This document shows, piece after piece, positions 35,199 to 52,312 of a stretch of DNA of 64,000 bases. The stretch's first letter is position 1, and each line of letters starts with the position of its first letter. This stretch comes from Candidatus Fraserbacteria bacterium (GTDB lineage: Bacteria; Bipolaricaulota; Bipolaricaulia; RBG-16-55-9), in contig JBBIPG010000001.1 of NCBI GenBank assembly GCA_037442925.1, positions 1,368 through 65,367 on the forward strand. Reading direction: 5' to 3'. The translations under genes and the position numbers were made by a program. Below the pieces are notes generated by a model. It did no database searches. It saw only the letters and a list, made by a program, of their open reading frames with translations, and was not told where the DNA came from.

Positions 35199-35840
35199 AT
35201 GTCAGCGGGCATTCTTCATCTGCGTGCCGAGCAGGGTCTTGCTGTATCAGAACAAGAACAAGAACAGATACGCGAAGTCGTGCACGGCGGGAAGATTCTC
35301 ATCTTCCCTACAGACACCATTTACGGGTTAGGGTGCGATGCCTTCAATGACAGAGCCGTTGAGCGAGTTTATAGAATCAAAGGGCGCGCTCCGGAGCGAC
35401 CGTTCTCTGTGCACGTGGCGAGCGTTTCGGTTATCGAGCAGTATGTAGCCCCACTTACGGGACGTCAGCGTGATTTGCTAGAAAGGCTTCTGCCCGGTCC
35501 CTACACAGTGGTGATGAGAGCTTCCCCTATGGCTCCACCCATGTGTGTAAGCCATGAAGGCAAGATCGGTCTACGAGTGCCCGCGAGTCGTTCCTTCCGG
35601 CTCGTGTATGAAGCTCCCGGACGTCCGCTCGTGGGCACGAGCGCCAACCGCTCTGGCGAGCCGCCGCTACCTTCCATAGACGAGATCATCGAGCGATTCT
35701 CACATGCTGTGGACCTCATCGTTGCCACCGATGAGCCCATGACTCAAGTGAGTTCGAGTGTAATTGACATTACCGTCGATCCCCCACGGGTGTTGAGGGG
35801 AAGACTGCCCGAAGGCATTGTATGGCGGGAGGATCACTGA
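35199..35840 (+). CDS. tsaC: L-threonylcarbamoyladenylate synthase (YrdC/TsaC short form)
   Basis: ILIFPTDTIYGLGCDA motif. Confidence 0.8.
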   Translation: MSAGILHLRAEQGLAVSEQEQEQIREVVHGGKILIFPTDTIYGLGCDAFNDRAVERVYRIKGRAPERPFSVHVASVSVIEQYVAPLTGRQRDLLERLLPGPYTVVMRASPMAPPMCVSHEGKIGLRVPASRSFRLVYEAPGRPLVGTSANRSGEPPLPSIDEIIERFSHAVDLIVATDEPMTQVSSSVIDITVDPPRVLRGRLPEGIVWREDH

Positions 35841-37093
35841 TGGAGCTAGCGGCACTTGTGATCTTTCTCATCACGTACATCATCATCGCTATTCAGAAGC
35901 TGCCTTTTATTCACATCAGTCGAGCCGCGGGTGCGTTGGTCGGTGCTGTGGCCATGTGCCTCTTTGGGGTGCTCACTCCGGAGCAGGCTTATGCGGCGAT
36001 TGACCTGGACACACTCGTATTCCTTTTGGGGATGATGATCCTGGTAGCACATCTCGAGATCGCCGGTTTCTTTGAAGTTCTCGAACTATGGATTCTGCGT
36101 CGGGCGCGCAGTCGCCGGGGGTTGCTGGGCCTGGTCGTGGCTTCCAGTGGCCTGCTTTCGTCTCTTTTCATGAACGACACGATTAGCTTGATGTTCACGC
36201 CCGTTCTACTGCGTCTCACGCAACGGTTCCAGCTGAATCCACTGCCGTATCTTTTGGGGTTAGTGATGGCAGCCAATGCGGGTAGCGTCGCCACACTCAT
36301 CGGGAATCCCCAACACATGCTGATCAGCCTACGGGGTCAGCTGGGGTTCCTGGAGTTTACCGCTGCCTTGGGACCGGTGGCTCTGGTGAATCTTGTCATC
36401 ATCTTCGCTGGGCTCTGCCTCCTCTTTCGGCGTGAACTTGGGGGACCCATCTCCTTGTGGGAGGAAGGTCTTCCAGAGTATCACGACCTTGTGCGGCAGC
36501 GTGGGCTTCTGTTCGTAGGGCTCGTCGTGATGGGGCTCTTTCTCGCGTTGCTCCTGGCAGGAACTCCTCCCCAGTGGGCGGCCATCCTCTGCGCCGCTCT
36601 GCTTCTTGTGTTGAGCAGCAACCGTCCCCGCCGGGCCCTTCAGCAGGTGGATTGGACCCTCTTGCTGCTCTTTGCTGGGCTTTTCATTGTCATGCGCGGT
36701 CTGGAGGAGGTGAACTGGGTTGAGAAGCTTATGGCGTGGGTTCAGCCTTGGTTTTCTGCGGAGAGTTCTGGATTCGGCTCACTGATGCCGCTCGCAGGGA
36801 TTACCGTCTTAGCCAGCAATCTTGTGAGTAACGTGCCTGCTGTGCTGCTTTTGGCGCCGCTTCTAGAGCATACCGGGGTTGGCTCAGATTCCTGGCTGAC
36901 TCTCGCGATGTCCTCGACTCTCGCGGGCAACCTCACGATCATTGGCTCGGCAGCGAACTTGATCGTCCTGGAGATCGCTGCAACTCGCGGTGTTCATATC
37001 GGCTTCTGGAGCTATTTCCGCGTGGGACTGCCTCTGACACTGCTTACTGTTGTCATCGGTGCTCTCTGGCTGATGTTTCGTGCTCTACTATAG
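35822..37093 (+). CDS. ArsB/NhaD-superfamily anion permease
   Basis: 423 aa, about 10-12 TM. Overlaps tsaC by 19 nt. Confidence 0.6.
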   Translation: MAGGSLMELAALVIFLITYIIIAIQKLPFIHISRAAGALVGAVAMCLFGVLTPEQAYAAIDLDTLVFLLGMMILVAHLEIAGFFEVLELWILRRARSRRGLLGLVVASSGLLSSLFMNDTISLMFTPVLLRLTQRFQLNPLPYLLGLVMAANAGSVATLIGNPQHMLISLRGQLGFLEFTAALGPVALVNLVIIFAGLCLLFRRELGGPISLWEEGLPEYHDLVRQRGLLFVGLVVMGLFLALLLAGTPPQWAAILCAALLLVLSSNRPRRALQQVDWTLLLLFAGLFIVMRGLEEVNWVEKLMAWVQPWFSAESSGFGSLMPLAGITVLASNLVSNVPAVLLLAPLLEHTGVGSDSWLTLAMSSTLAGNLTIIGSAANLIVLEIAATRGVHIGFWSYFRVGLPLTLLTVVIGALWLMFRALL

Positions 37094-44120: not shown

Positions 44121-44714
44121 GTGAAGCTGCTGCTCGGGACAAAAAACGACAAGAAATTCCCGGAATTTTTCCAGATTCTCGCGAATCTCCCCGTGGAATG
44201 GCTGACGTATCATGAGTGCCCCTTCCGTGACGTAAGAGAAGACGGTCGCACGTTTAAAGAAAATGCACTCAAAAAGGCTCGCCAGATCAGTCAGGCGACA
44301 GGGCTGGCCGTCTTGGCTGAGGATGCCGGCTTGGAGGTGGAGGCATTAGGAGGCAAGCCAGGTGTGTACTCGGCTCGCTTTGCAGGAGTTGCTGGTCGAA
44401 GGGCGACGGACCAGCAGAACATCGAAAAGCTTCTCAAGTTGCTGAAGGGTGTGGAAGATAGGAGGGCCCACTTTGTTTGCGTGGCTGTACTGCATTTCCC
44501 AGACGGGAAAGAGCTGATTTCTGAAGGAGAACTCAAGGGGCACATCGCTCAGGAGGCCCGAGGAACGCACGGCTTCGGCTACGACCCCGTGTTTATTCCT
44601 GAGGGCTATGAGAAGACGCTGGCAGAGCTGGGACCGTCTGTGAAAGACGAGATCAGTCATCGCAAGAAAGCGCTGGAACGACTCAAAAAAGAGCTTCAAG
44701 CTAAGGTTATTTGA
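44121..44714 (+). CDS. rdgB: dITP/XTP pyrophosphatase (Ham1/RdgB)
   Basis: GTKNDKK..., FGYDPVF motifs. Confidence 0.9.
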   Translation: MKLLLGTKNDKKFPEFFQILANLPVEWLTYHECPFRDVREDGRTFKENALKKARQISQATGLAVLAEDAGLEVEALGGKPGVYSARFAGVAGRRATDQQNIEKLLKLLKGVEDRRAHFVCVAVLHFPDGKELISEGELKGHIAQEARGTHGFGYDPVFIPEGYEKTLAELGPSVKDEISHRKKALERLKKELQAKVI

Positions 44715-44770
44715 CAGCCTCCCGAAAGTAAGCTATTCTTGATCTGGTAATACTATTATGAAACGGTAAG

Positions 44771-45022
44771 GTGATGGCCATGATCGGTAGCAAGCTGACC
44801 TCCAAAGGCCAGACGACGATTCCTAAAGAGATTCGAGACTTTCTCGGCCTGCGAGCTGGAGATCGGGTGGTCTTCCTTCGCCGGGAGGGGGAAGTCATCC
44901 TACAAGCTGTGAAGCAGACGCTTTTGGACCTGCGTGGGAGCATCCAGATTCGTAGACAGCCGGAGGACTTCGATCAGATCCGCCGACAAGTCAAGCGCCG
45001 AATGACCCGCAAGGGCGCATGA
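44771..45022 (+). CDS. vapB: AbrB/MazE-fold antitoxin (VapB-like)
   Basis: KLTSKGQTTIPKEIRD swapped-hairpin motif. Stop immediately followed by the PIN gene's ATG (TGAATG). Confidence 0.7.
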   Translation: MMAMIGSKLTSKGQTTIPKEIRDFLGLRAGDRVVFLRREGEVILQAVKQTLLDLRGSIQIRRQPEDFDQIRRQVKRRMTRKGA

Positions 45023-45451
45023 ATGACTCCGTGCTTTGTCGATACCAACATCTTCTTGCGCTTTCTCACTAGTGATGTCCCTGCTCAGGCCGAGGCGGTT
45101 GCGCAGCTACTGCGGCGAGCAGCAGACGGGAAAGTCTCCCTAAAAACGAGCGCGCTTGTGATCGCAGAGCTTGTCTGGACGTTGGAATCCTATTATGAGC
45201 TGGATCGCGAGGAGATCAAGGCCAAAGTGTTGGCGATCTTGAATACGCCGGGGTTGGAGGTGGAGGATGGCGAGCTCATTGGAGAAACCATTCTGTTCTA
45301 TGCAGAGAAGAATGTGGATTTCATTGATGCGTACCACGCTTATTGGATGAAGAGCCATGGACTCTCTCGGGTGTATACCTTCGATACGAAACACTTTACG
45401 CGGGCTGAGGGGATCATACCTCTGGTGCCGGGAGCCAAGGAGCAGGCGTAA
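45023..45451 (+). CDS. vapC: PIN-domain toxin VapC
   Basis: FVDTNIFLRFL N-terminus with acidic PIN residues. Confidence 0.8.
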   Translation: MTPCFVDTNIFLRFLTSDVPAQAEAVAQLLRRAADGKVSLKTSALVIAELVWTLESYYELDREEIKAKVLAILNTPGLEVEDGELIGETILFYAEKNVDFIDAYHAYWMKSHGLSRVYTFDTKHFTRAEGIIPLVPGAKEQA

Positions 45452-45497
45452 CACAGAGATCTTCAAGCCAAGCTTTCCTAGGACCCCATCTACACTC

Positions 45498-45525
45498 TTG
45501 CCAGATATTAAGAGCGTGTTATCAT
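45498..45525 (+). promoter_or_regulatory. Putative promoter for the protease-WD40 gene
   Basis: TTGCCA - 16 nt - TATCAT. Followed by a 6-bp hairpin in the leader. Confidence 0.35.
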
Positions 45526-45589
45526 ATGGGAGTAGGCCCGGATGTGGGTTTGAAAGAGTTCACATCTAGGCCAGAAAAGGAGGGCGCCC

Positions 45590-47064
45590 ATGCTCAAGCG
45601 TGGTCTCAGGCTTGCAGCGATACTCGGTTTCTTGTCGGTGTTGATTCTATCGGGGAGTTTTCCTGGAGTGGGGGTAATCGCAAGCGCGCAGCAAGATATT
45701 TCAGCGATCGTCGAGCGTGTCAGGCCGGCGGTCGTCGAAATCGTGACGGATAAGGGGCAAGGGAGCGGATTTATCATCACATCGGATGGGGCAGTTCTCA
45801 CTGCTTACCACGTCGTGCGGGGAGCCAGCAGCATCGAAGCTCGGTTGCCGAATGGCTCAAGCTACAGAGCAACTGTAGGAAGTATGATGAGACGTATGAC
45901 CGTGGGGGCAGCGATCTGGCCTTGCTGAGGGTAAGCGCCAGCGGCCTTCCCACAGTGAGCTTAGGCGACTCGGATACCATCAGGATTGGGCACTCCATCA
46001 TCGTCATGGGCTATCCCTTGGGTATGGGTTTTCTTGTTGGCACCGGAAACATTAGTGGCAGTGTGGATTTTGGCGGTGGGCGCACAGTCTTTGTAATTGA
46101 TGCTGCCGTCAACCCAGGCAACAGCGGCGGACCGCTCCTCAATGATGAAGGTGATGTTATTGGAGTCGTCTTCGGCAGGGCCGATGTCCCCGGGATCAGG
46201 GTGGAGGGAATCAACTTCGCTACCCCAATAAACACTGCCAAGCGTGAGTTGAGACTAAACGTACCCACTGTGCACACCCTCACCCTCGGCCACAACAGCA
46301 CAGTCCTGTCAGTAGTGTTCAGCCCCGACGGACGGCTGCTCGCCTCCGGCTCCGTGTTCTGGGACAGTAGCACGTGGAGAGGAGAGATCAAGCTGTGGGA
46401 TGTAGCCACGGGTCAGGAGATCCGCACCATCAGCCCCAGCGGTAGCTGCACTATCGAGTGGGGGATCGCGTTCAGCCCTAACGGACAATTTCTCGCCTCC
46501 GGCTCCGGGGAAGGAGTGGTCTATTTGTGGGAGGTGGCCACGGGCCGGGAGGTCCGCACCTTAACTACTGGCAACACCTTCTCAGTCTGTTGGGTGGCCT
46601 TCAGCCCGGACGGGCGGTTACTCGCCGCCGCCACCGCCACTGACGACATCAAACTGTGGGAGGTGGCCACGGGTCAGGAGATCCGCACTCTCACTGGCCA
46701 CACCTACGGTGTCCATCAAGTAGCCTTCAGTCCTGACGGAAAGTTCCTCGCTTCCGGTGCTGGTGACTATACTATCAAGCTGTGGGAGGTGACCACGGGC
46801 AAAGAGGTGCACACACTCTCCGGTCACACTGGGTCGGTGTACTCCGTAGCCTTCAGCCCAGATGGGAAGCAGCTCGCCTCAGGTTCCTGGGACGAGACAA
46901 TCAAGCTGTGGGCTGTGGCCACAGGACAAGAAGTTTGCACCCTCACAGGGCACACCGACCAGGTCAATTCGGTAGCCTACAGTCCCGATGGGAGGCTCCT
47001 TGCCTCCGCTGGCTATATGGACCATACGATTAAGCTCTGGAACATCACTGCACTGTCAGGGTGA
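45590..47064 (+). pseudogene. Secreted trypsin-like (S1/HtrA-type) serine protease fused to WD40 repeats, interrupted by a -1 frameshift near 45880
   Basis: ORF 45590..45928 carries signal peptide and the catalytic His (LTAYHVV). The next frame (45922..47064) continues with DLALLRV (Asp) and GNSGGPL (Ser), then 6-7 WD repeats. The two frames join at ...RATVG|KYDETYD. Confidence 0.7.
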
Positions 47065-47115
47065 ATGATCGGGATGATTGCGGGCAACAACACCTCAGGC
47101 AATCAGAACGGTATG

Positions 47116-47240
47116 GGCAACCCCTGCAATCACCCCTGGAACCGACCCGACGTGCCTGATGGGCAAGTGTGTCTGCCATAGATGCAAGGAAGCAACTGGC
47201 GGTCAGCAATCCGCTGTCAGCAGAGACGAAAGACTCAAAG
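47116..47240. repeat. Copy A of about 125-bp direct repeat flanking the DUF433/DUF5615 pair
   Basis: About 80% identical to 47938..48062, read by eye. Core: GTGTGTCTGCCATAGATGCAAGGAAGCAACTGGCGGTCAGCAATC. Confidence 0.6.
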
Positions 47241-47280
47241 CTGATGGCTGAAAGCTGACTGCCAATTCGCTACAATCAAC

Positions 47281-47547
47281 ATGGTGATACCCATGAAGAT
47301 CGCAGAACGCATTGAAGTCGACCATAACATCTGCCACGGCAAGCCCCGCATCGCCGGCACCCGCATCATGGTCGAACAGGTGCTGGATCTCCTAGCCGCT
47401 GGTATCCCCATTGAGCAGATCACTTCCGAGGAATACTTCCCGGATCTCACCAAAGAGGACGTACTGGCCTGCGTGGGCTTCGCCAATGCGTTCCTTAAGG
47501 GCGAAGAGTTCCATATCTACGAACCGGAGACCCCAAGCCCAGCGTGA
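47281..47547 (+). CDS. DUF433 protein (putative antitoxin)
   Basis: 88 aa, ...HGKPRIAGTRIMVEQVLDLLAAG typical of DUF433. Confidence 0.65.
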   Translation: MVIPMKIAERIEVDHNICHGKPRIAGTRIMVEQVLDLLAAGIPIEQITSEEYFPDLTKEDVLACVGFANAFLKGEEFHIYEPETPSPA

Positions 47548-47900
47548 AGATTCTGGCTGATCACTGCGTCTATGGCAAGACCGTTCAACTTCTTCGAGCA
47601 CAAGGCCATGAGGCCATCACGCTCCAGGAGTTGGGGCAGGCCAAGGTCGCTGACCATCAAGTGCTGATGCTGGCTCAGTCACTGGATGCCGTGCTGGTCA
47701 CAAACGACAAGGGATTTGGCAATATCCTGACCTATCCCCCGGAGCGCTATGGAGGCATCCTTGTACTGCGGGTGACCGCCACGAGCCAGCAACGAGTTCA
47801 TCAGATTCTATTGGATTTCTTAAAGTCACATGATCGGGAGTCGTTGCGCAAAGCGCTTGTGGTCATTGATGCCCGGACCTATCGGATCAGAAGAAGCTAG
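47544..47900 (+). CDS. DUF5615 (PIN-like) putative toxin
   Basis: 118 aa, MKILADHCV...LVTNDKGFG. 4-nt overlap with DUF433 gene. Confidence 0.6.
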   Translation: MKILADHCVYGKTVQLLRAQGHEAITLQELGQAKVADHQVLMLAQSLDAVLVTNDKGFGNILTYPPERYGGILVLRVTATSQQRVHQILLDFLKSHDRESLRKALVVIDARTYRIRRS

Positions 47901-47937
47901 CTGGCCAACGATTCCCCGTGGCTCGAAGAATCTTATG

Positions 47938-48062
47938 GACAACCTTGGCAATCACCCCGGAACCGGCCCAGCGTGCTCGATGGGTAGGTGTGTTTGCCAT
48001 AGACGCAAGGAAGCAACTAGCGGTCAGCAATCAGCTCTCAGCTAAAGGCAAGAGCTGAAGGC
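47938..48062. repeat. Copy B of about 125-bp direct repeat
   Basis: See copy A. Confidence 0.6.
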
Positions 48063-48156
48063 CACTCCCAACATTCAGGCAGATTAAATCGGGCGGTCTA
48101 GTTGCCTGAGTACCGGCCTACTGTCTAAGATGTAAAAATCGACAAATGGAGCGGTC

Positions 48157-48429
48157 ATGGCCGATGGCGATGTGGACCTTCTGGAGCGAATGCGCCGCAC
48201 ACGCAGCGGCTGGGGCGAGGATGACTTGGACAGACTTTATCGTAGCTTCAGCTTCCGCGAGATCACACGCCCCAGGGCCCCTCACCGTGTCTACGTCCAC
48301 CCTGCTCACCCTGACCTACGAGCTACTGTCGCGCGCAAAAAATCTCTGCCCAAGGGCTATCCGACCACGGCCGTACGCATCATTGATCAACTCTTGGAGA
48401 GACAGAAAGCGAAAGGGGGAAGCCCATGA
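48157..48429 (+). CDS. hicA: HicA-like mRNA interferase toxin
   Basis: 90 aa. SGWGEDDLDRLYRSFSF...HRVYVHPAHPDLRATVARKK fits HicA dsRBD-like pattern. Confidence 0.55.
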   Translation: MADGDVDLLERMRRTRSGWGEDDLDRLYRSFSFREITRPRAPHRVYVHPAHPDLRATVARKKSLPKGYPTTAVRIIDQLLERQKAKGGSP

Positions 48430-48665
48430 AGAAAGACGTAGATTATTATGACCGATTGCCTTGGAGGGTGCAGATCGAACCCGAGCGTCAAGACGACGGG
48501 ACGATCGTTTACATTGCCTCGCATCCGGAGTTTGAGGGCGTGCTGGGCAGTGGAACCACACCCGAAGAGGCGTTGGTCGATTTGCGCAAAGCACGCCGCG
48601 CGATGATCGAGGCATTGCTGTCGGAGGGTTACTCCGTGCCAGAACCAGCAGCCGTAGTGGTTTAG
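48426..48665 (+). CDS. hicB: HicB-like antitoxin (UPF0150)
   Basis: 79 aa. DGTIVYIASHPEFEGVLGSGTTPEEALVDLRKA. 4-nt overlap with hicA. Confidence 0.55.
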   Translation: MKKDVDYYDRLPWRVQIEPERQDDGTIVYIASHPEFEGVLGSGTTPEEALVDLRKARRAMIEALLSEGYSVPEPAAVVV

Positions 48666-48703
48666 CTTGGCTCTTCCTTGCTTGTGCCTGACAGCGTTGT
48701 GGA

Positions 48704-48964
48704 GTGCCAGGGAATGCGGATGAAGAACGACGCAACGAGGGGCTCAGCATCGCAGAGGTCGAACAAGCTTTGCTCAATGGACGCATTCTGGAGGATTATC
48801 CTCAAGATCCTCGCGGACCTTCGTGCCTGGTTTATGGGGATGCCGGAGGGCAGCCCATTCACGTGGTCTGCGGACGTAACCGCTCAGGATGGCTCGTGCT
48901 GATCATTGTGTATGTTCCGACAATGCCGAAATGGAAAAGCCAGACAGAAAGGAGTCAGCCATGA
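48704..48964 (+). CDS. DUF4258 putative toxin
   Basis: About 86 aa. ...ILEDYPQDPRGPSCLVYG...PIHVVCG...LIIVYVPT pattern. Start uncertain. Confidence 0.5.
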   Translation: MPGNADEERRNEGLSIAEVEQALLNGRILEDYPQDPRGPSCLVYGDAGGQPIHVVCGRNRSGWLVLIIVYVPTMPKWKSQTERSQP

Positions 48965-49107
48965 AGCCTTATGATGACTGCATCCATTGCGGCGGCCGGG
49001 TGGACGAACGCCTGGAGTGCATCGACTATCGCTACCACGGACAGCTCTTCATCCTGGGGCCGCGCCTCTCCAAGCTCGGGCTTTACATGCTGAGCGATCT
49101 GTTCTAG
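48961..49107 (+). CDS. YgiT/MqsA-type zinc-finger antitoxin-like protein
   Basis: 48 aa. MKPYDDCIHCGG...ECIDYRY. Overlaps DUF4258 stop (ATGA). Confidence 0.45.
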   Translation: MKPYDDCIHCGGRVDERLECIDYRYHGQLFILGPRLSKLGLYMLSDLF

Positions 49108-49152
49108 AATGTGCAAGGTATCCAAGAAGACAGCTAAGCTCAGGATTGGCGT

Positions 49153-49500
49153 ATGCTTCGCGAAGGAGGCGAGTGGATGATTTCTTTTGACGATTTTCTC
49201 AAGCTGGACATTCGCATGGCAGAGATCGCGGCAGCAGAGCGCGTCCCCGGCACTGACAAACTCCTTAAGTTGACGGTGAATTTGGGAAGCGAAACCCGGC
49301 AACTTGTGGCAGGTATTGCGAAATCTTACGCACCGGAGAGTCTTGTTGGAAAGAAAATACCCATCGTGACCAATCTCGAACCTAAGACCATTCGAGGCAT
49401 CGAAAGCCAAGGGATGATCCTCTGCCCTTCCACGTCCGAGGGAAAGCCGGTCTTGCTCCTGCCCGACCGGGATGTGCCACTGGGAGCCAAAGTGAAGTAA
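49153..49500 (+). CDS. csaA: tRNA-binding protein CsaA (EMAP/MetRS C-terminal-like)
   Basis: 115 aa, LDIRMAEIAAAERVPGTDKLLKLTV. Confidence 0.8.
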   Translation: MLREGGEWMISFDDFLKLDIRMAEIAAAERVPGTDKLLKLTVNLGSETRQLVAGIAKSYAPESLVGKKIPIVTNLEPKTIRGIESQGMILCPSTSEGKPVLLLPDRDVPLGAKVK

Positions 49501-51661: not shown

Positions 51662-52312
51662 ATGCCTAGAGCAACCGTTGACTCTCATCATATCCGAGTC
51701 CTCTACGATCAGTTGGCTTCGGGCTACGATCGCCGTACTGCACTGAGCGATTTCTTATTCTTGAAGCGTTTTCGCCGACAGCTTCTGGCCTCGGCTCATG
51801 GGCGAGTTCTGGAGATCGGCATCGGAACGGGCCGAAATCTCCCCTATTATCCACGCGATTGTGACATCACGGGCGTGGATATCTCTCCCAAAATGCTTGA
51901 AGCAGCAGCACATCGAGCAGCCCAGATGGGTCTTAAGGTGAAGCTCTTGCAGATGGATGGCCATGAACTCAGCTTCCCCAGTTCTAGTTTCGACACGGTA
52001 GTGAGCAGCTTGTCGCTCTGCACCGTGATCGATCCGGTCAAAGCCCTGGCAGAGATGTCTCGGGTGAGCGTTCCCAATGGACGCATCTTGCTGCTCGAGC
52101 ACGGTCGAAGCCGATACCGCTGGGTCTGCCGCCTTCTGGATTTATTGGCGCCCCACCAGATTGGCAAGTACGGCTGCCATCCGAATCGGAATATCTTGGC
52201 GCTGGTACAAGCCGCAGATCTCGTGGTATTACAGATCGAGCGCCACTTTCTGGGTGGCATCCTGCAAGTGATCCGTGCGCGACCTCCGCGCTCTGGCACG
52301 ATCTCCAAATGA
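51662..52312 (+). CDS. Class I SAM-dependent methyltransferase
   Basis: VLEIGIGTGRNL motif I. Confidence 0.75.
   Translation: MPRATVDSHHIRVLYDQLASGYDRRTALSDFLFLKRFRRQLLASAHGRVLEIGIGTGRNLPYYPRDCDITGVDISPKMLEAAAHRAAQMGLKVKLLQMDGHELSFPSSSFDTVVSSLSLCTVIDPVKALAEMSRVSVPNGRILLLEHGRSRYRWVCRLLDLLAPHQIGKYGCHPNRNILALVQAADLVVLQIERHFLGGILQVIRARPPRSGTISK

Follow-up and report, generated by a model that had tools for sequence, protein, structure and literature searches.

Between rdgB and csaA, on the + strand of the 64-kb stretch of DNA analysed here (the window), eight small genes form four adjacent pairs (44771-49107; Table 1). Given the comparison with syntenic relatives, we hold it to be very probable that small two-gene type II toxin-antitoxin (TA) modules accumulated, in this lineage specifically, at two positions within a conserved backbone. 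The locus is an ordinary strain-specific cluster of them: three look intact, one has decayed, and the TA families are already known. An earlier sequence-only reading of the window had described four type II pairs with 1- or 4-nt overlaps. Its ORF limits and strand for all eight TA-family genes matched ours exactly and its flanking genes, rdgB and csaA, were confirmed by Pfam; the cluster of four adjacent pairs stands, with the qualification that one of them, DUF4258/zinc-finger, survives as a decayed remnant. Three pairs do overlap by 4 nt (GTGA or ATGA), but vapB and vapC simply abut (TGA then ATG). None of 18 other small and mid-sized ORFs scanned within the window matched a TA family.

Table 1. 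Features of the rdgB-csaA interval (window positions)
Feature	Position	Strand	Evidence
rdgB, Ham1-family NTP pyrophosphatase; left backbone gene	44121..44714	+	Pfam Ham1p_like 6.6e-63
Left copy of rdgB 3'-end duplication (last 25 nt of rdgB)	44690-44714	+	Junction sequences compared
vapB antitoxin, AbrB/SpoVT/MazE-type N-terminal DNA-binding domain	44771..45022	+	Pfam MazE_antitoxin 5.1e-10, profile 3-45 of 48
vapC PIN-domain toxin	45023..45451	+	Pfam PIN 2.5e-14, profile 2-117 of 120
Right copy of rdgB 3'-end duplication, relic of original rdgB end (RDLQAKLS, then stop)	45455..45481	+	L161 collinearity restarts here
Secreted S1C (HtrA-like) protease-WD40 propeller fusion, pseudogene	45590..47064	+	Trypsin_2 split over two frames; WD40 8.8e-64
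Conserved 3' coding tail of protease gene (…NNTSGNQNGMGNPCNHPWNRPDVPDGQVCLP, then stop)	47065..47181	+	In frame directly behind TGA 47062-47064
Repeat copy 1: protease-gene tail plus 45-nt extension; left flank of DUF433-DUF5615	47083..47221	+	Repeat search, alignment
DUF433 (COG2442) antitoxin	47281..47547	+	Pfam DUF433 7.3e-21, profile 1-56 of 56
DUF5615 (COG4634, Mut7-C-like PIN) toxin	47544..47900	+	Pfam DUF5615 3.6e-22, profile 1-108 of 110
Repeat copy 2: decayed protease-tail duplicate plus same 45-nt extension; right flank of DUF433-DUF5615	47905..48042	+	Repeat search, alignment
Candidate divergent HicA-type toxin, 90 aa, extra N-terminal helix, invariant His43	48157..48429	+	Family analysis; AlphaFold model/Foldseek
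HicB antitoxin, 79 aa, N-terminal domain only	48426..48665	+	HicB_lk_antitox 1.2e-3 alone, below Pfam threshold
DUF4258 (BECR-fold) toxin gene, probably inactivated	48704..48964	+	Pfam DUF4258 1.6e-18
Truncated MqsA/YgiT-type zinc-finger antitoxin, 48 aa	48961..49107	+	Homology only for residues 1-32, to about 49056-49060
csaA, tRNA-binding domain protein; right backbone gene	49177..49500	+	Pfam tRNA_bind 1.6e-27

The toxin-antitoxin modules

Two pairs could be placed by profile search. Both members of vapBC, proposed earlier as an AbrB-fold plus PIN pair, passed Pfam thresholds over nearly the full profile, and vapB also matched the NCBIfam AbrB domain (8e-13); the vapC start codon lies immediately 3' of the vapB stop codon and a promoter scan placed a promoter-like site at 44711-44739, near vapB. 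The VapC translation carries acidic residues D7, E49, D102 and D121, which are likely to be the catalytic positions. The identity of the DUF433-DUF5615 pair was likewise borne out by near full-length matches above threshold, the DUF5615 protein additionally matching PIN_10 (1.2e-6); the two ORFs overlap by GTGA and a promoter-like site precedes DUF433 at 47248-47276. There is precedent for this pair type, which has been predicted and partly validated (PMC2701414, PMC3834315, PMC5499597). The PIN-COG2442 pair vapBC10 is a demonstrated working TA system (PMC3834315), and COG4634 and PIN_10 are predicted toxins and DUF433 partners (PMC5499597, PMC2701414); toxicity of a member of the DUF5615/COG4634/PIN_10 branch is not demonstrated in these three papers.

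The hicA-hicB pair could not be verified by the TA profile searches that had been suggested for it: the hicA ORF matched nothing in Pfam or NCBIfam, hicB on its own fell below threshold, and it took structure prediction and family analysis to place the hicA ORF. The 90-aa protein is one member of a conserved family (at least 98 clusters), and the top Foldseek matches of its AlphaFold model (pLDDT 86.8) were the HicA proteins 1whz, 6g26_F and 5yrz_B (E-value 0.03, which is weak; probability 1.00; rmsd 1.6 A over 60 columns). This structural match, together with weak matches to Pfam HicA_toxin in 4 of 26 family members, suggests that the ORF encodes a divergent HicA-type toxin. For the partner, 31 of 42 homologues matched HicB_lk_antitox, and the family profile matched the PDB HicB chains 6g1c, 6g26, 6hpb and 6u0i. 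The two genes overlap by ATGA. They also occur together, as one unit, in four further genomic contexts, which are unrelated and in which nucleotide homology was limited to the two ORFs (48155-48655).

The fourth pair, read earlier as DUF4258 plus a YgiT-type protein, is right as to families (the DUF4258 match is strong and MqsA/YgiT homology is retained at the start of the partner) but both genes are damaged. Alignment with five homologues showed that the DUF4258 protein lacks the first 8-20 residues at the N-terminus and that, in the HA..RM.ERGIS helix, Asn replaces a conserved His which all five retain; a stop codon (48689-48691) lies just 5' of the ORF. Fusions to MqsA have been reported for DUF4258, a family of BECR-fold toxins (PMC11980606), and colicin-like BECR toxins have their active site on the pre-alpha helix, with a conserved His (bioRxiv 10.64898/2026.08.28.747851). 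By analogy with this general statement on the colicin-like group, rather than from a mapped DUF4258 active site, and from the five homologues, the toxin is probably inactivated. The zinc-finger ORF overlaps DUF4258 by 4 nt. Of about 78 residues it keeps 32, a deletion having taken the C-terminus together with the second CxxC, and it runs out into the native DNA upstream of csaA, which resumes at 49080. We therefore take the module to be a dead or dying remnant and not a working pair. A promoter-like site (49082-49110) precedes csaA, which was called at 107 aa on the Logan contig.

With regard to mode of action, what is known of the families suggests that in each of the three intact-looking modules toxin and antitoxin would be made from one translationally coupled operon, a labile antitoxin binding and neutralising a stable nuclease toxin, and that loss or degradation of the antitoxin would free the toxin and stop growth. 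VapC would act as a PIN-domain RNase, the DUF5615 protein as a Mut7-C-like PIN nuclease and HicA as a His-dependent mRNA interferase. Autoregulation is probable for the operons of VapB, which is of AbrB type, and of DUF433; for hicAB, whose HicB has no DNA-binding domain, it would work in another way, if at all.

A resident protease pseudogene

The frameshifted secreted S1 protease-WD40 gene noticed earlier amid the pairs is real. It is broken into two frames by the loss of 1 nt at about 45878-45879: the signal peptide and the catalytic His fall in 45590-45928 (Trypsin_2 profile 1-45), whereas Asp, Ser and the six WD40 repeats fall in 45922-47064 (profile 57-144). Intact homologues (72-85% identity) read YRA[NTR]VE[KR]YDETYD uninterrupted across the break. 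From the same sample, an independent Logan contig was 100% identical; the frameshift is seen in two assemblies, of which the one of known origin represents a single sample. Beyond the WD40 domain, an in-frame TGA (47062-47064) further cuts off a conserved tail, which is 84-86% identical to the corresponding segments of two syntenic relatives, L161 (11269-11362) and L160 (3805-3906), with substitutions favouring third codon positions (5/1/11 and 4/3/10, respectively, at positions 1/2/3). What did not hold is that this gene is part of the islet: it is a resident, syntenic gene turned pseudogene, with modules inserted at both its flanks, and lies outside any TA or defence system.

Probable insertion of the modules at two sites

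The conserved order of the backbone is oppD-oppF-rdgB-protease-csaA-CCG/Fe-S oxidoreductase. L161, an unbinned metagenome contig and the one close syntenic relative found, is 88-92% identical to the window in nucleotide sequence over about 20 kb and has oppDF-rdgB-protease-csaA with zero TA pairs; the collinear segments are 81-93% identical. L161 up to 9836 aligns with the window up to 44697, L161 9827-10612 with 45455-46242, and L161 from 11373 onwards with the window from 49080. Since L161 has the same gene order without the pairs, the window stretches that it lacks, 44698-45454 and 47178-49079, are best explained as insertions. L160, the second syntenic relative, is collinear to 44697 and likewise passes from rdgB to the protease gene without vapBC. 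We propose that vapBC inserted within the last codons of rdgB, whose 3' end now flanks it in two copies, and that a 1.9-kb block (DUF433-DUF5615, hicAB and DUF4258-mqsA-like) entered where the protease gene ends. Within that block, DUF433-DUF5615 lies between two copies of a repeat of about 140 nt (blastn 84.5% over 110 nt). Their 45-nt extensions are about 89% identical; in copy 2 the tail part carries an internal stop and has lost 1 nt, and its identity to copy 1, L161 and L160 is about 72%. As hicAB and the DUF4258 plus YgiT/MqsA-type pair (the latter on four plasmids and in another locus, L010) recur elsewhere, the modules appear to be mobile units.

It is conceivable, though unlikely, that all modules arrived together in one larger mobile element, an integrative island or integron-like cassette array of which the locus is an eroded remnant. 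The co-oriented, short, cassette-like units, the repeat between cassettes and the duplicated gene ends, which resemble att-site duplications, would fit such an origin. However, (i) the window contains no integrase, transposase or tRNA gene; (ii) GC content in the islet (0.53-0.61) is the same as in the flanks; (iii) the modules occupy two separate sites with a resident gene in between; (iv) the repeat copies the resident protease tail and is not an attC-like palindrome (fold z-scores between -1.0 and +0.8) and (v) no other copy of it was found in a metagenome scan or in related loci.

Slightly less probable still is that the locus carried the modules ancestrally, L161 and L160 having lost them by deletion. 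Just two syntenic relatives are available and TA loci are often lost, but the two rdgB 3' ends and two protease tails of the window are insertion footprints of a kind that deletion does not leave, and at each L161 junction the sequence passes cleanly and without interruption into the downstream copy of the repeat. Because the gene ends are duplicated, we favor insertion in the window's lineage.

The term accessory/defence islet thus fits in its first half, given L161, and not in its second, as no PADLOC match for any of the eight TA-family proteins, integrase, tRNA gene or compositional shift accompanies the genes and no known defence system was found at the locus. The least credible reading, a most improbable one, is an anti-phage defence island of four working TA pairs in which the protease-WD40 protein serves as sensor or effector: the TA modules are closely clustered, some defence proteins do have trypsin-like and WD40 domains and there were weak PADLOC matches to Avs1b, RT-Protease_XI and HEAT-ARM_XIII, but the protease and WD40 matches are generic domain matches, the protease has a signal peptide and a frameshift and is syntenic in relatives without TA modules, there with other C-terminal domains, and one pair is truncated in both genes.

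Comparison with known systems

Intact DUF4258 (BECR/Ntox49-like) plus YgiT/MqsA pairs, as on the four plasmids and in L010, share gene order and the 4-nt overlap with the window's pair, whose toxin has lost N-terminal residues and the His and whose antitoxin has lost 46 residues. With type II VapBC systems (AbrB/SpoVT-type VapB plus PIN VapC) the window's vapBC shares the antitoxin-then-toxin order, abutting ORFs, full-length Pfam MazE/AbrB and PIN matches and acidic residues at the expected PIN active site; it differs in that VapC scores 13.8 bits against TIGR00028, the NCBIfam VapC subfamily, under its cut-off of 73.6. A search by sequence found no PDB relative of this VapBC.

Type II HicAB systems (B. 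pseudomallei HicAB, 6g26; T. thermophilus TTHA1913, 1whz) have in common with the window's pair the toxin-then-antitoxin order, the 4-nt overlap, a predicted HicA fold with conserved His and the HicB N-terminal domain in the partner. The window's HicA, in contrast, has the extra helix and escapes Pfam and NCBIfam, and its HicB lacks a C-terminal DNA-binding domain, whether RHH or HTH, such as most homologues (100-125 aa) have. Relative to the PIN-COG2442 systems (Synechocystis VapBC10 and M. tuberculosis VapBC45, Rv2018/Rv2019), the DUF5615 toxin belongs to a reduced Mut7-C-like branch (DUF5615/COG4634/PIN_10), the likeness to VapC10 being one of pair type; shared are a DUF433 antitoxin upstream of a PIN-like toxin and a 4-nt overlap between them.

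A cluster of TA-family pairs in a conserved backbone

All credible genes at 44121-49500 lie on the + strand, and they include the four toxin-antitoxin (TA) pairs that the sequence-only reading had described between rdgB and csaA. The coordinates given for these pairs are exact. Their clustering is real, because none of 18 other small or mid-sized ORFs scanned across the 64-kb window gave a TA-family match. The overlaps of 1 or 4 nt described for every pair held for three of them, each with 4 nt shared; vapB and vapC instead abut. An Rfam scan of the whole window at gathering threshold returned nothing.

Features at and around the TA islet (window positions)
Feature	Position	Strand	Profile match
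rdgB	44121-44714	+	Ham1p_like 6.6e-63
AbrB/MazE-type ORF	44771-45022	+	Pfam 5.1e-10; NCBIfam AbrB 8e-13
PIN ORF	45023-45451	+	PF01850 2.5e-14, profile 2-117 of 120
Trypsin_2 N-terminal fragment	45590-45928	+	Trypsin_2 profile positions 1-45
Trypsin_2 C-terminal part + WD40	45922-47064	+	WD40 8.8e-64, six stretches; Trypsin_2 57-144
DUF433	47281-47547	+	7.3e-21, profile 1-56 of 56
DUF5615 / PIN_10	47544-47900	+	DUF5615 3.6e-22, profile 1-108 of 110; PIN_10 1.2e-6
90-aa ORF (HicA-like)	48157-48429	+	no Pfam or NCBIfam match
79-aa ORF (HicB-like)	48426-48665	+	HicB_lk_antitox 1.2e-3, under threshold
DUF4258	48704-48964	+	PF14076 1.6e-18, profile 6-70 of 71
48-aa ORF	48961-49107	+	no profile match
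csaA	49177-49500	+	tRNA_bind 1.6e-27

An RdgB-based search of genome representatives and JGI metagenomes found nothing closer than 67% protein identity; this match, a Candidatus Bipolaricaulota MAG, has oppDF-rdgB in common with the window and differs downstream. Closer syntenic contigs were reached through homologues of the protease. One of them, the unbinned metagenome contig L161 (ERR15087765), is collinear with window positions 33556-57247 at 81-93% identity and carries oppD-oppF-rdgB-protease-csaA-CCG oxidoreductase in that order, without window segments 44698-45454 (vapBC) and 47178-49079 (the three other modules). The second contig, L160 (ERZ21828391), reads oppF-rdgB-protease with vapBC absent. 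The modules were therefore inserted into a backbone that is conserved in these relatives and to which the protease gene belongs as a resident; the proposal that the islet is accessory is borne out. The context of P0110 proved not to be syntenic.

The two backbones differ at other places as well. A CitMHS/ArsB-type transporter gene (window 35822-37093) is missing from L161, and the LemA and peptidase M48 genes of L161 (14630-16107) are missing from the window at 52310/52321. Near the start of the window there is a ~260-nt repeat (60-320 and 1908-2170, 86% identical) that appears to span the upstream region and first codons of a minus-strand gene at 1364-1954 and the same part of a second gene, which would extend beyond the start of the window. 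The repeat points to duplication of a gene locally.

Footprints of module insertion

No conventional mobile element was apparent: we found no tRNA gene, the ORFs scanned contained no integrase, transposase or recombinase domain, and the islet resembles its flanks in GC content. What the islet junctions do contain is short direct duplications of gene ends. On each side of the vapBC module lies a version of the final eight rdgB codons, namely …KELQAKVI* at 44690-44714, which is the rdgB end now in use, and …RDLQAKLS* at 45455-45481, which is collinear with …RQLRPKLS* in L161. The DUF433-DUF5615 module is bracketed by a ~140-nt repeat (copy 1, 47083-47221; copy 2, 47905-48042). Copy 1 holds the conserved protease 3' coding tail, NNTSGNQNxMGNPxxHPxNRPxVxDGQVxL, which follows the TGA at 47062-47064 in frame. 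This tail shows 84-86% identity to those of L161 and L160, and the substitutions fall preferentially at third codon positions. Copy 2, a duplicate at ~72% identity, has decayed through a 1-nt deletion and contains an internal stop. Both tails are followed by a 45-nt non-coding extension (ATAGAYGCAAGGAAGCAACTRGCGGTCAGCAATC…; 47178-47221 and 47999-48042), which is ~89% identical between the copies as against ~72% for the tail. Neither L160 nor L161 has the extension, and the metagenome scan did not show it either; the 26-nt repeat core had zero matches in that scan, and blastn against all loci retrieved found no copies of the repeat outside this organism. The idea that the repeat is a structured RNA or an attC-like hairpin was discarded, as fold z-scores were -1.0 to +0.8 for both copies on both strands and the repeat is not in Rfam.

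The two insertion sites have the following in common: (i) the 3' end of the upstream gene is duplicated, over 25-27 nt for rdgB and over ~95 nt of protease tail plus the 45 nt for the second site, and (ii) the functional copy of the gene end lies upstream of the module and the decaying copy downstream. Two candidate routes would be expected to duplicate gene ends in this way. One could be illegitimate recombination that is facilitated by homology and has its anchor in the upstream gene; the other could be Campbell-type integration of a small circle bearing a copy of the gene end. A broader reading, which we consider improbable, is that the shared footprint marks recurrent, recombinase-free entry of naked two-gene TA modules into the chromosome and that the locus is perhaps a hot spot; the hot-spot idea comes from the protease gene, whose middle domain differs among three relatives.

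VapBC and DUF433-DUF5615

Both of these pairs passed Pfam thresholds, with near full-length coverage. Promoters are predicted ahead of both, at 44711-44739 and 47248-47276. With a score of 54.3 bits the PIN domain of VapC exceeds the cut-off of 23.6, and it spans the whole PF01850 profile. In the translation the acidic residues D7, E49, D102 and D121, candidates for the four conserved active-site positions, fall at the expected spacing; no solved VapC was found for alignment. VapB is encoded upstream, its stop codon directly abutting the vapC start, and bears an AbrB/MazE DNA-binding domain. In the second pair, the DUF433 gene directly precedes the DUF5615/PIN_10 gene, and the same pairing is seen at another locus compared (L087). 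There is precedent for such an arrangement. A TA role was predicted for PIN-COG2442 pairs (PMC2701414), one of which, VapBC10, has been validated and is the only related pair with published toxicity data (PMC3834315), and COG4634 and PIN_10 proteins of the Mut7-C-like PIN group were predicted to be toxins with DUF433 partners (PMC5499597). PDB sequence searches with VapC and DUF5615 gave nothing meaningful.

A divergent HicAB module

The pair called hicA-hicB proved harder to place. The 90-aa protein did not match PF07927 (HicA) even at E <= 10, nor did it match anything in the profile libraries that we used, and PDB sequence searches gave nothing meaningful. Its closely knit family comprises at least 98 clusters, none with a precomputed Pfam domain, and four of 26 members matched HicA_toxin weakly (best 1.9e-3). 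Twelve columns are invariant in the 26 members, among them His43 in the motif A-P-H-R-V-Y-x-H-P; judging from the motif G-x-x-H-R-V-Y, we infer that His43 may be the counterpart of the HicA catalytic His. HicA proteins have a dsRBD-like alpha-beta-beta-beta-alpha fold. An AlphaFold model of the 90-aa protein built from the family alignment (pLDDT 86.8, pTM 0.77) runs helix, helix, strands, helix, and its top Foldseek matches in the PDB were HicA proteins: 1whz (probability 1.00, rmsd 1.6 A over 60 columns, TM-target 0.69), 6g26_F (TM-target 0.73) and 5yrz_B (TM-target 0.66).

Relatives of the 79-aa partner number 873 at E <= 1e-3 and are mostly 100-125 aa long; 31 of 42 that were sampled matched HicB_lk_antitox (PF15919; best 3.2e-11). 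Its family profile also matches solved HicB structures (6g1c, 1.6e-5; 6g1n/6g26, 3e-5; 6hpb, 1.4e-3; also 6u0i). The window protein stops just after the N-domain and is devoid of a DNA-binding domain that could serve autoregulation. The two genes co-occur in four unrelated contexts, across which nucleotide homology is limited to 48155-48655. We conclude that the two genes form a divergent type of HicAB module, from a subfamily of its own, whose HicA has an extra N-terminal helix and whose HicB has no DNA-binding domain; the hicA-hicB call stands on the HicA fold and the HicB N-domain partner, while the profile check against PF07927 was failed by the HicA protein. In two 128-aa proteins from JGI contigs (P0097 and P0098), HicA residues 1-39 run on in frame into HicB, so that the His-bearing HicA core is deleted and the antitoxin part kept, which is the pattern expected on toxin loss with antitoxin retention.

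Decay of the fourth pair

The DUF4258 and MqsA/YgiT-type genes had been read as a full TA pair. This is not upheld: the pair is a remnant, missing both the His of the toxin's N-terminal helix and the second C-x-x-C of the antitoxin. The window DUF4258 ORF was aligned with five homologues, one from L010 and four from plasmids; in every case a YgiT/MqsA-type gene comes next. The window ORF starts three codons before the conserved H-A-x-x-R-M-x-E-R-G-I-S helix, directly behind a stop codon, and has Asn where five of five homologues have His and Glu where four of five have Arg. DUF4258 is listed among the TA toxins with a BECR fold, and 17 fusions of DUF4258 to MqsA are given (Gerdes 2025; PMC11980606). 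A 2026 preprint assigns it to the colicin-like BECR group, whose active site is located on this same pre-alpha helix and on strand beta4 and usually has a catalytic His (bioRxiv 10.64898/2026.08.28.747851). A PDB sequence search with DUF4258 gave nothing meaningful and an IMG/VR scan for its relatives gave none.

On the antitoxin side, the 48-aa ORF is 72-88% identical to MqsA/YgiT-type proteins of 77-79 aa, mostly over residues 1-32 only, and by tblastn the missing 46 residues are encoded in no frame. The first CxxC is kept and the second, present in nine of nine comparison proteins, is absent. Nucleotide homology of the antitoxin gene stops at ~49060 and native csaA-upstream DNA restarts at 49080.

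Related loci show other states of this module. At L088 (4545-4824) an intact 78-aa MqsA/YgiT-type antitoxin gene is kept, and of the DUF4258 gene ahead of it no more than the final 43 nt remain, a decay state reciprocal to that in the window. At 9071-10450 in L010, a Thermodesulfobacteriota MAG, rdgB is followed by an intact pair that encodes DUF4258 (104 aa) and YgiT (81 aa) with a 4-nt overlap. A module of this type thus lies behind the same housekeeping gene in a distant lineage too. On the Logan contig L091, a wrong-frame 62-aa ORF was called across the DUF4258 gene (2292-2480; window 48714-48902), which fits with DUF4258 lacking its normal start region.

The broken protease gene

The secreted S1 protease-WD40 gene had been described as frameshifted, and this was confirmed: the Trypsin_2 match is split over two frames. 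When repaired, the protease sequence matches intact homologues at 72-85% identity, and these are continuous over the break (YRA[NTR]VE[KR]YDETYDRGGSDLALL). The window reads GTA GG AAG versus the expected GTA GAR AAG, a 1-nt deletion at ~45878 that leaves the catalytic His in one frame and the Asp and Ser in another. The same sample also yielded a Logan contig of identical sequence. Programmed -1 frameshifting was dismissed, as ACT GTA GGA AGT contains no slippery heptamer and homologues have a plain Glu codon. Judged by its sequence, the N-terminus (MLKRGLRLAAILGFLSVLILSG…ASA|QQ) resembles a Sec signal peptide.

In three relatives (window 46243-47181, L161 10613-11372 and L160 2758-3956) the gene combines a conserved S1 domain and a conserved ~32-aa C-terminal tail with a middle domain that is WD40 in the window, beta-helix in L161 (a weak pectate-lyase-like match) and FGE-sulfatase in L160. 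The reading frame is apparently interrupted ahead of the tail in all three.

Comparison with known TA clusters

A defence role, also raised for the islet, found no backing from PADLOC, which matched none of the eight TA proteins and gave weak generic domain matches only for the protease and WD40 parts. Three of the modules are plausibly functional and one is a remnant. The islet provides a clean case, resolved to the base, of how TA modules entered a conserved backbone, and a relative still has the empty site. It also captures decay in progress: toxin and antitoxin are both eroding in the window, a second genome has the reciprocal orphan antitoxin, and a third has lost the HicA core. Of modest interest are the base-level footprints, the protease middle domain that differs in three relatives, and the HicA subfamily. 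The last of these is missed by Pfam and NCBIfam profiles, and therefore profile-based TA surveys would undercount it. Type II TA clusters on chromosomes are common and all four families have already been described, so that little here is new; the islet is an ordinary accessory cluster, made up of TA families already known and lying next to a resident protease gene that has become a pseudogene.
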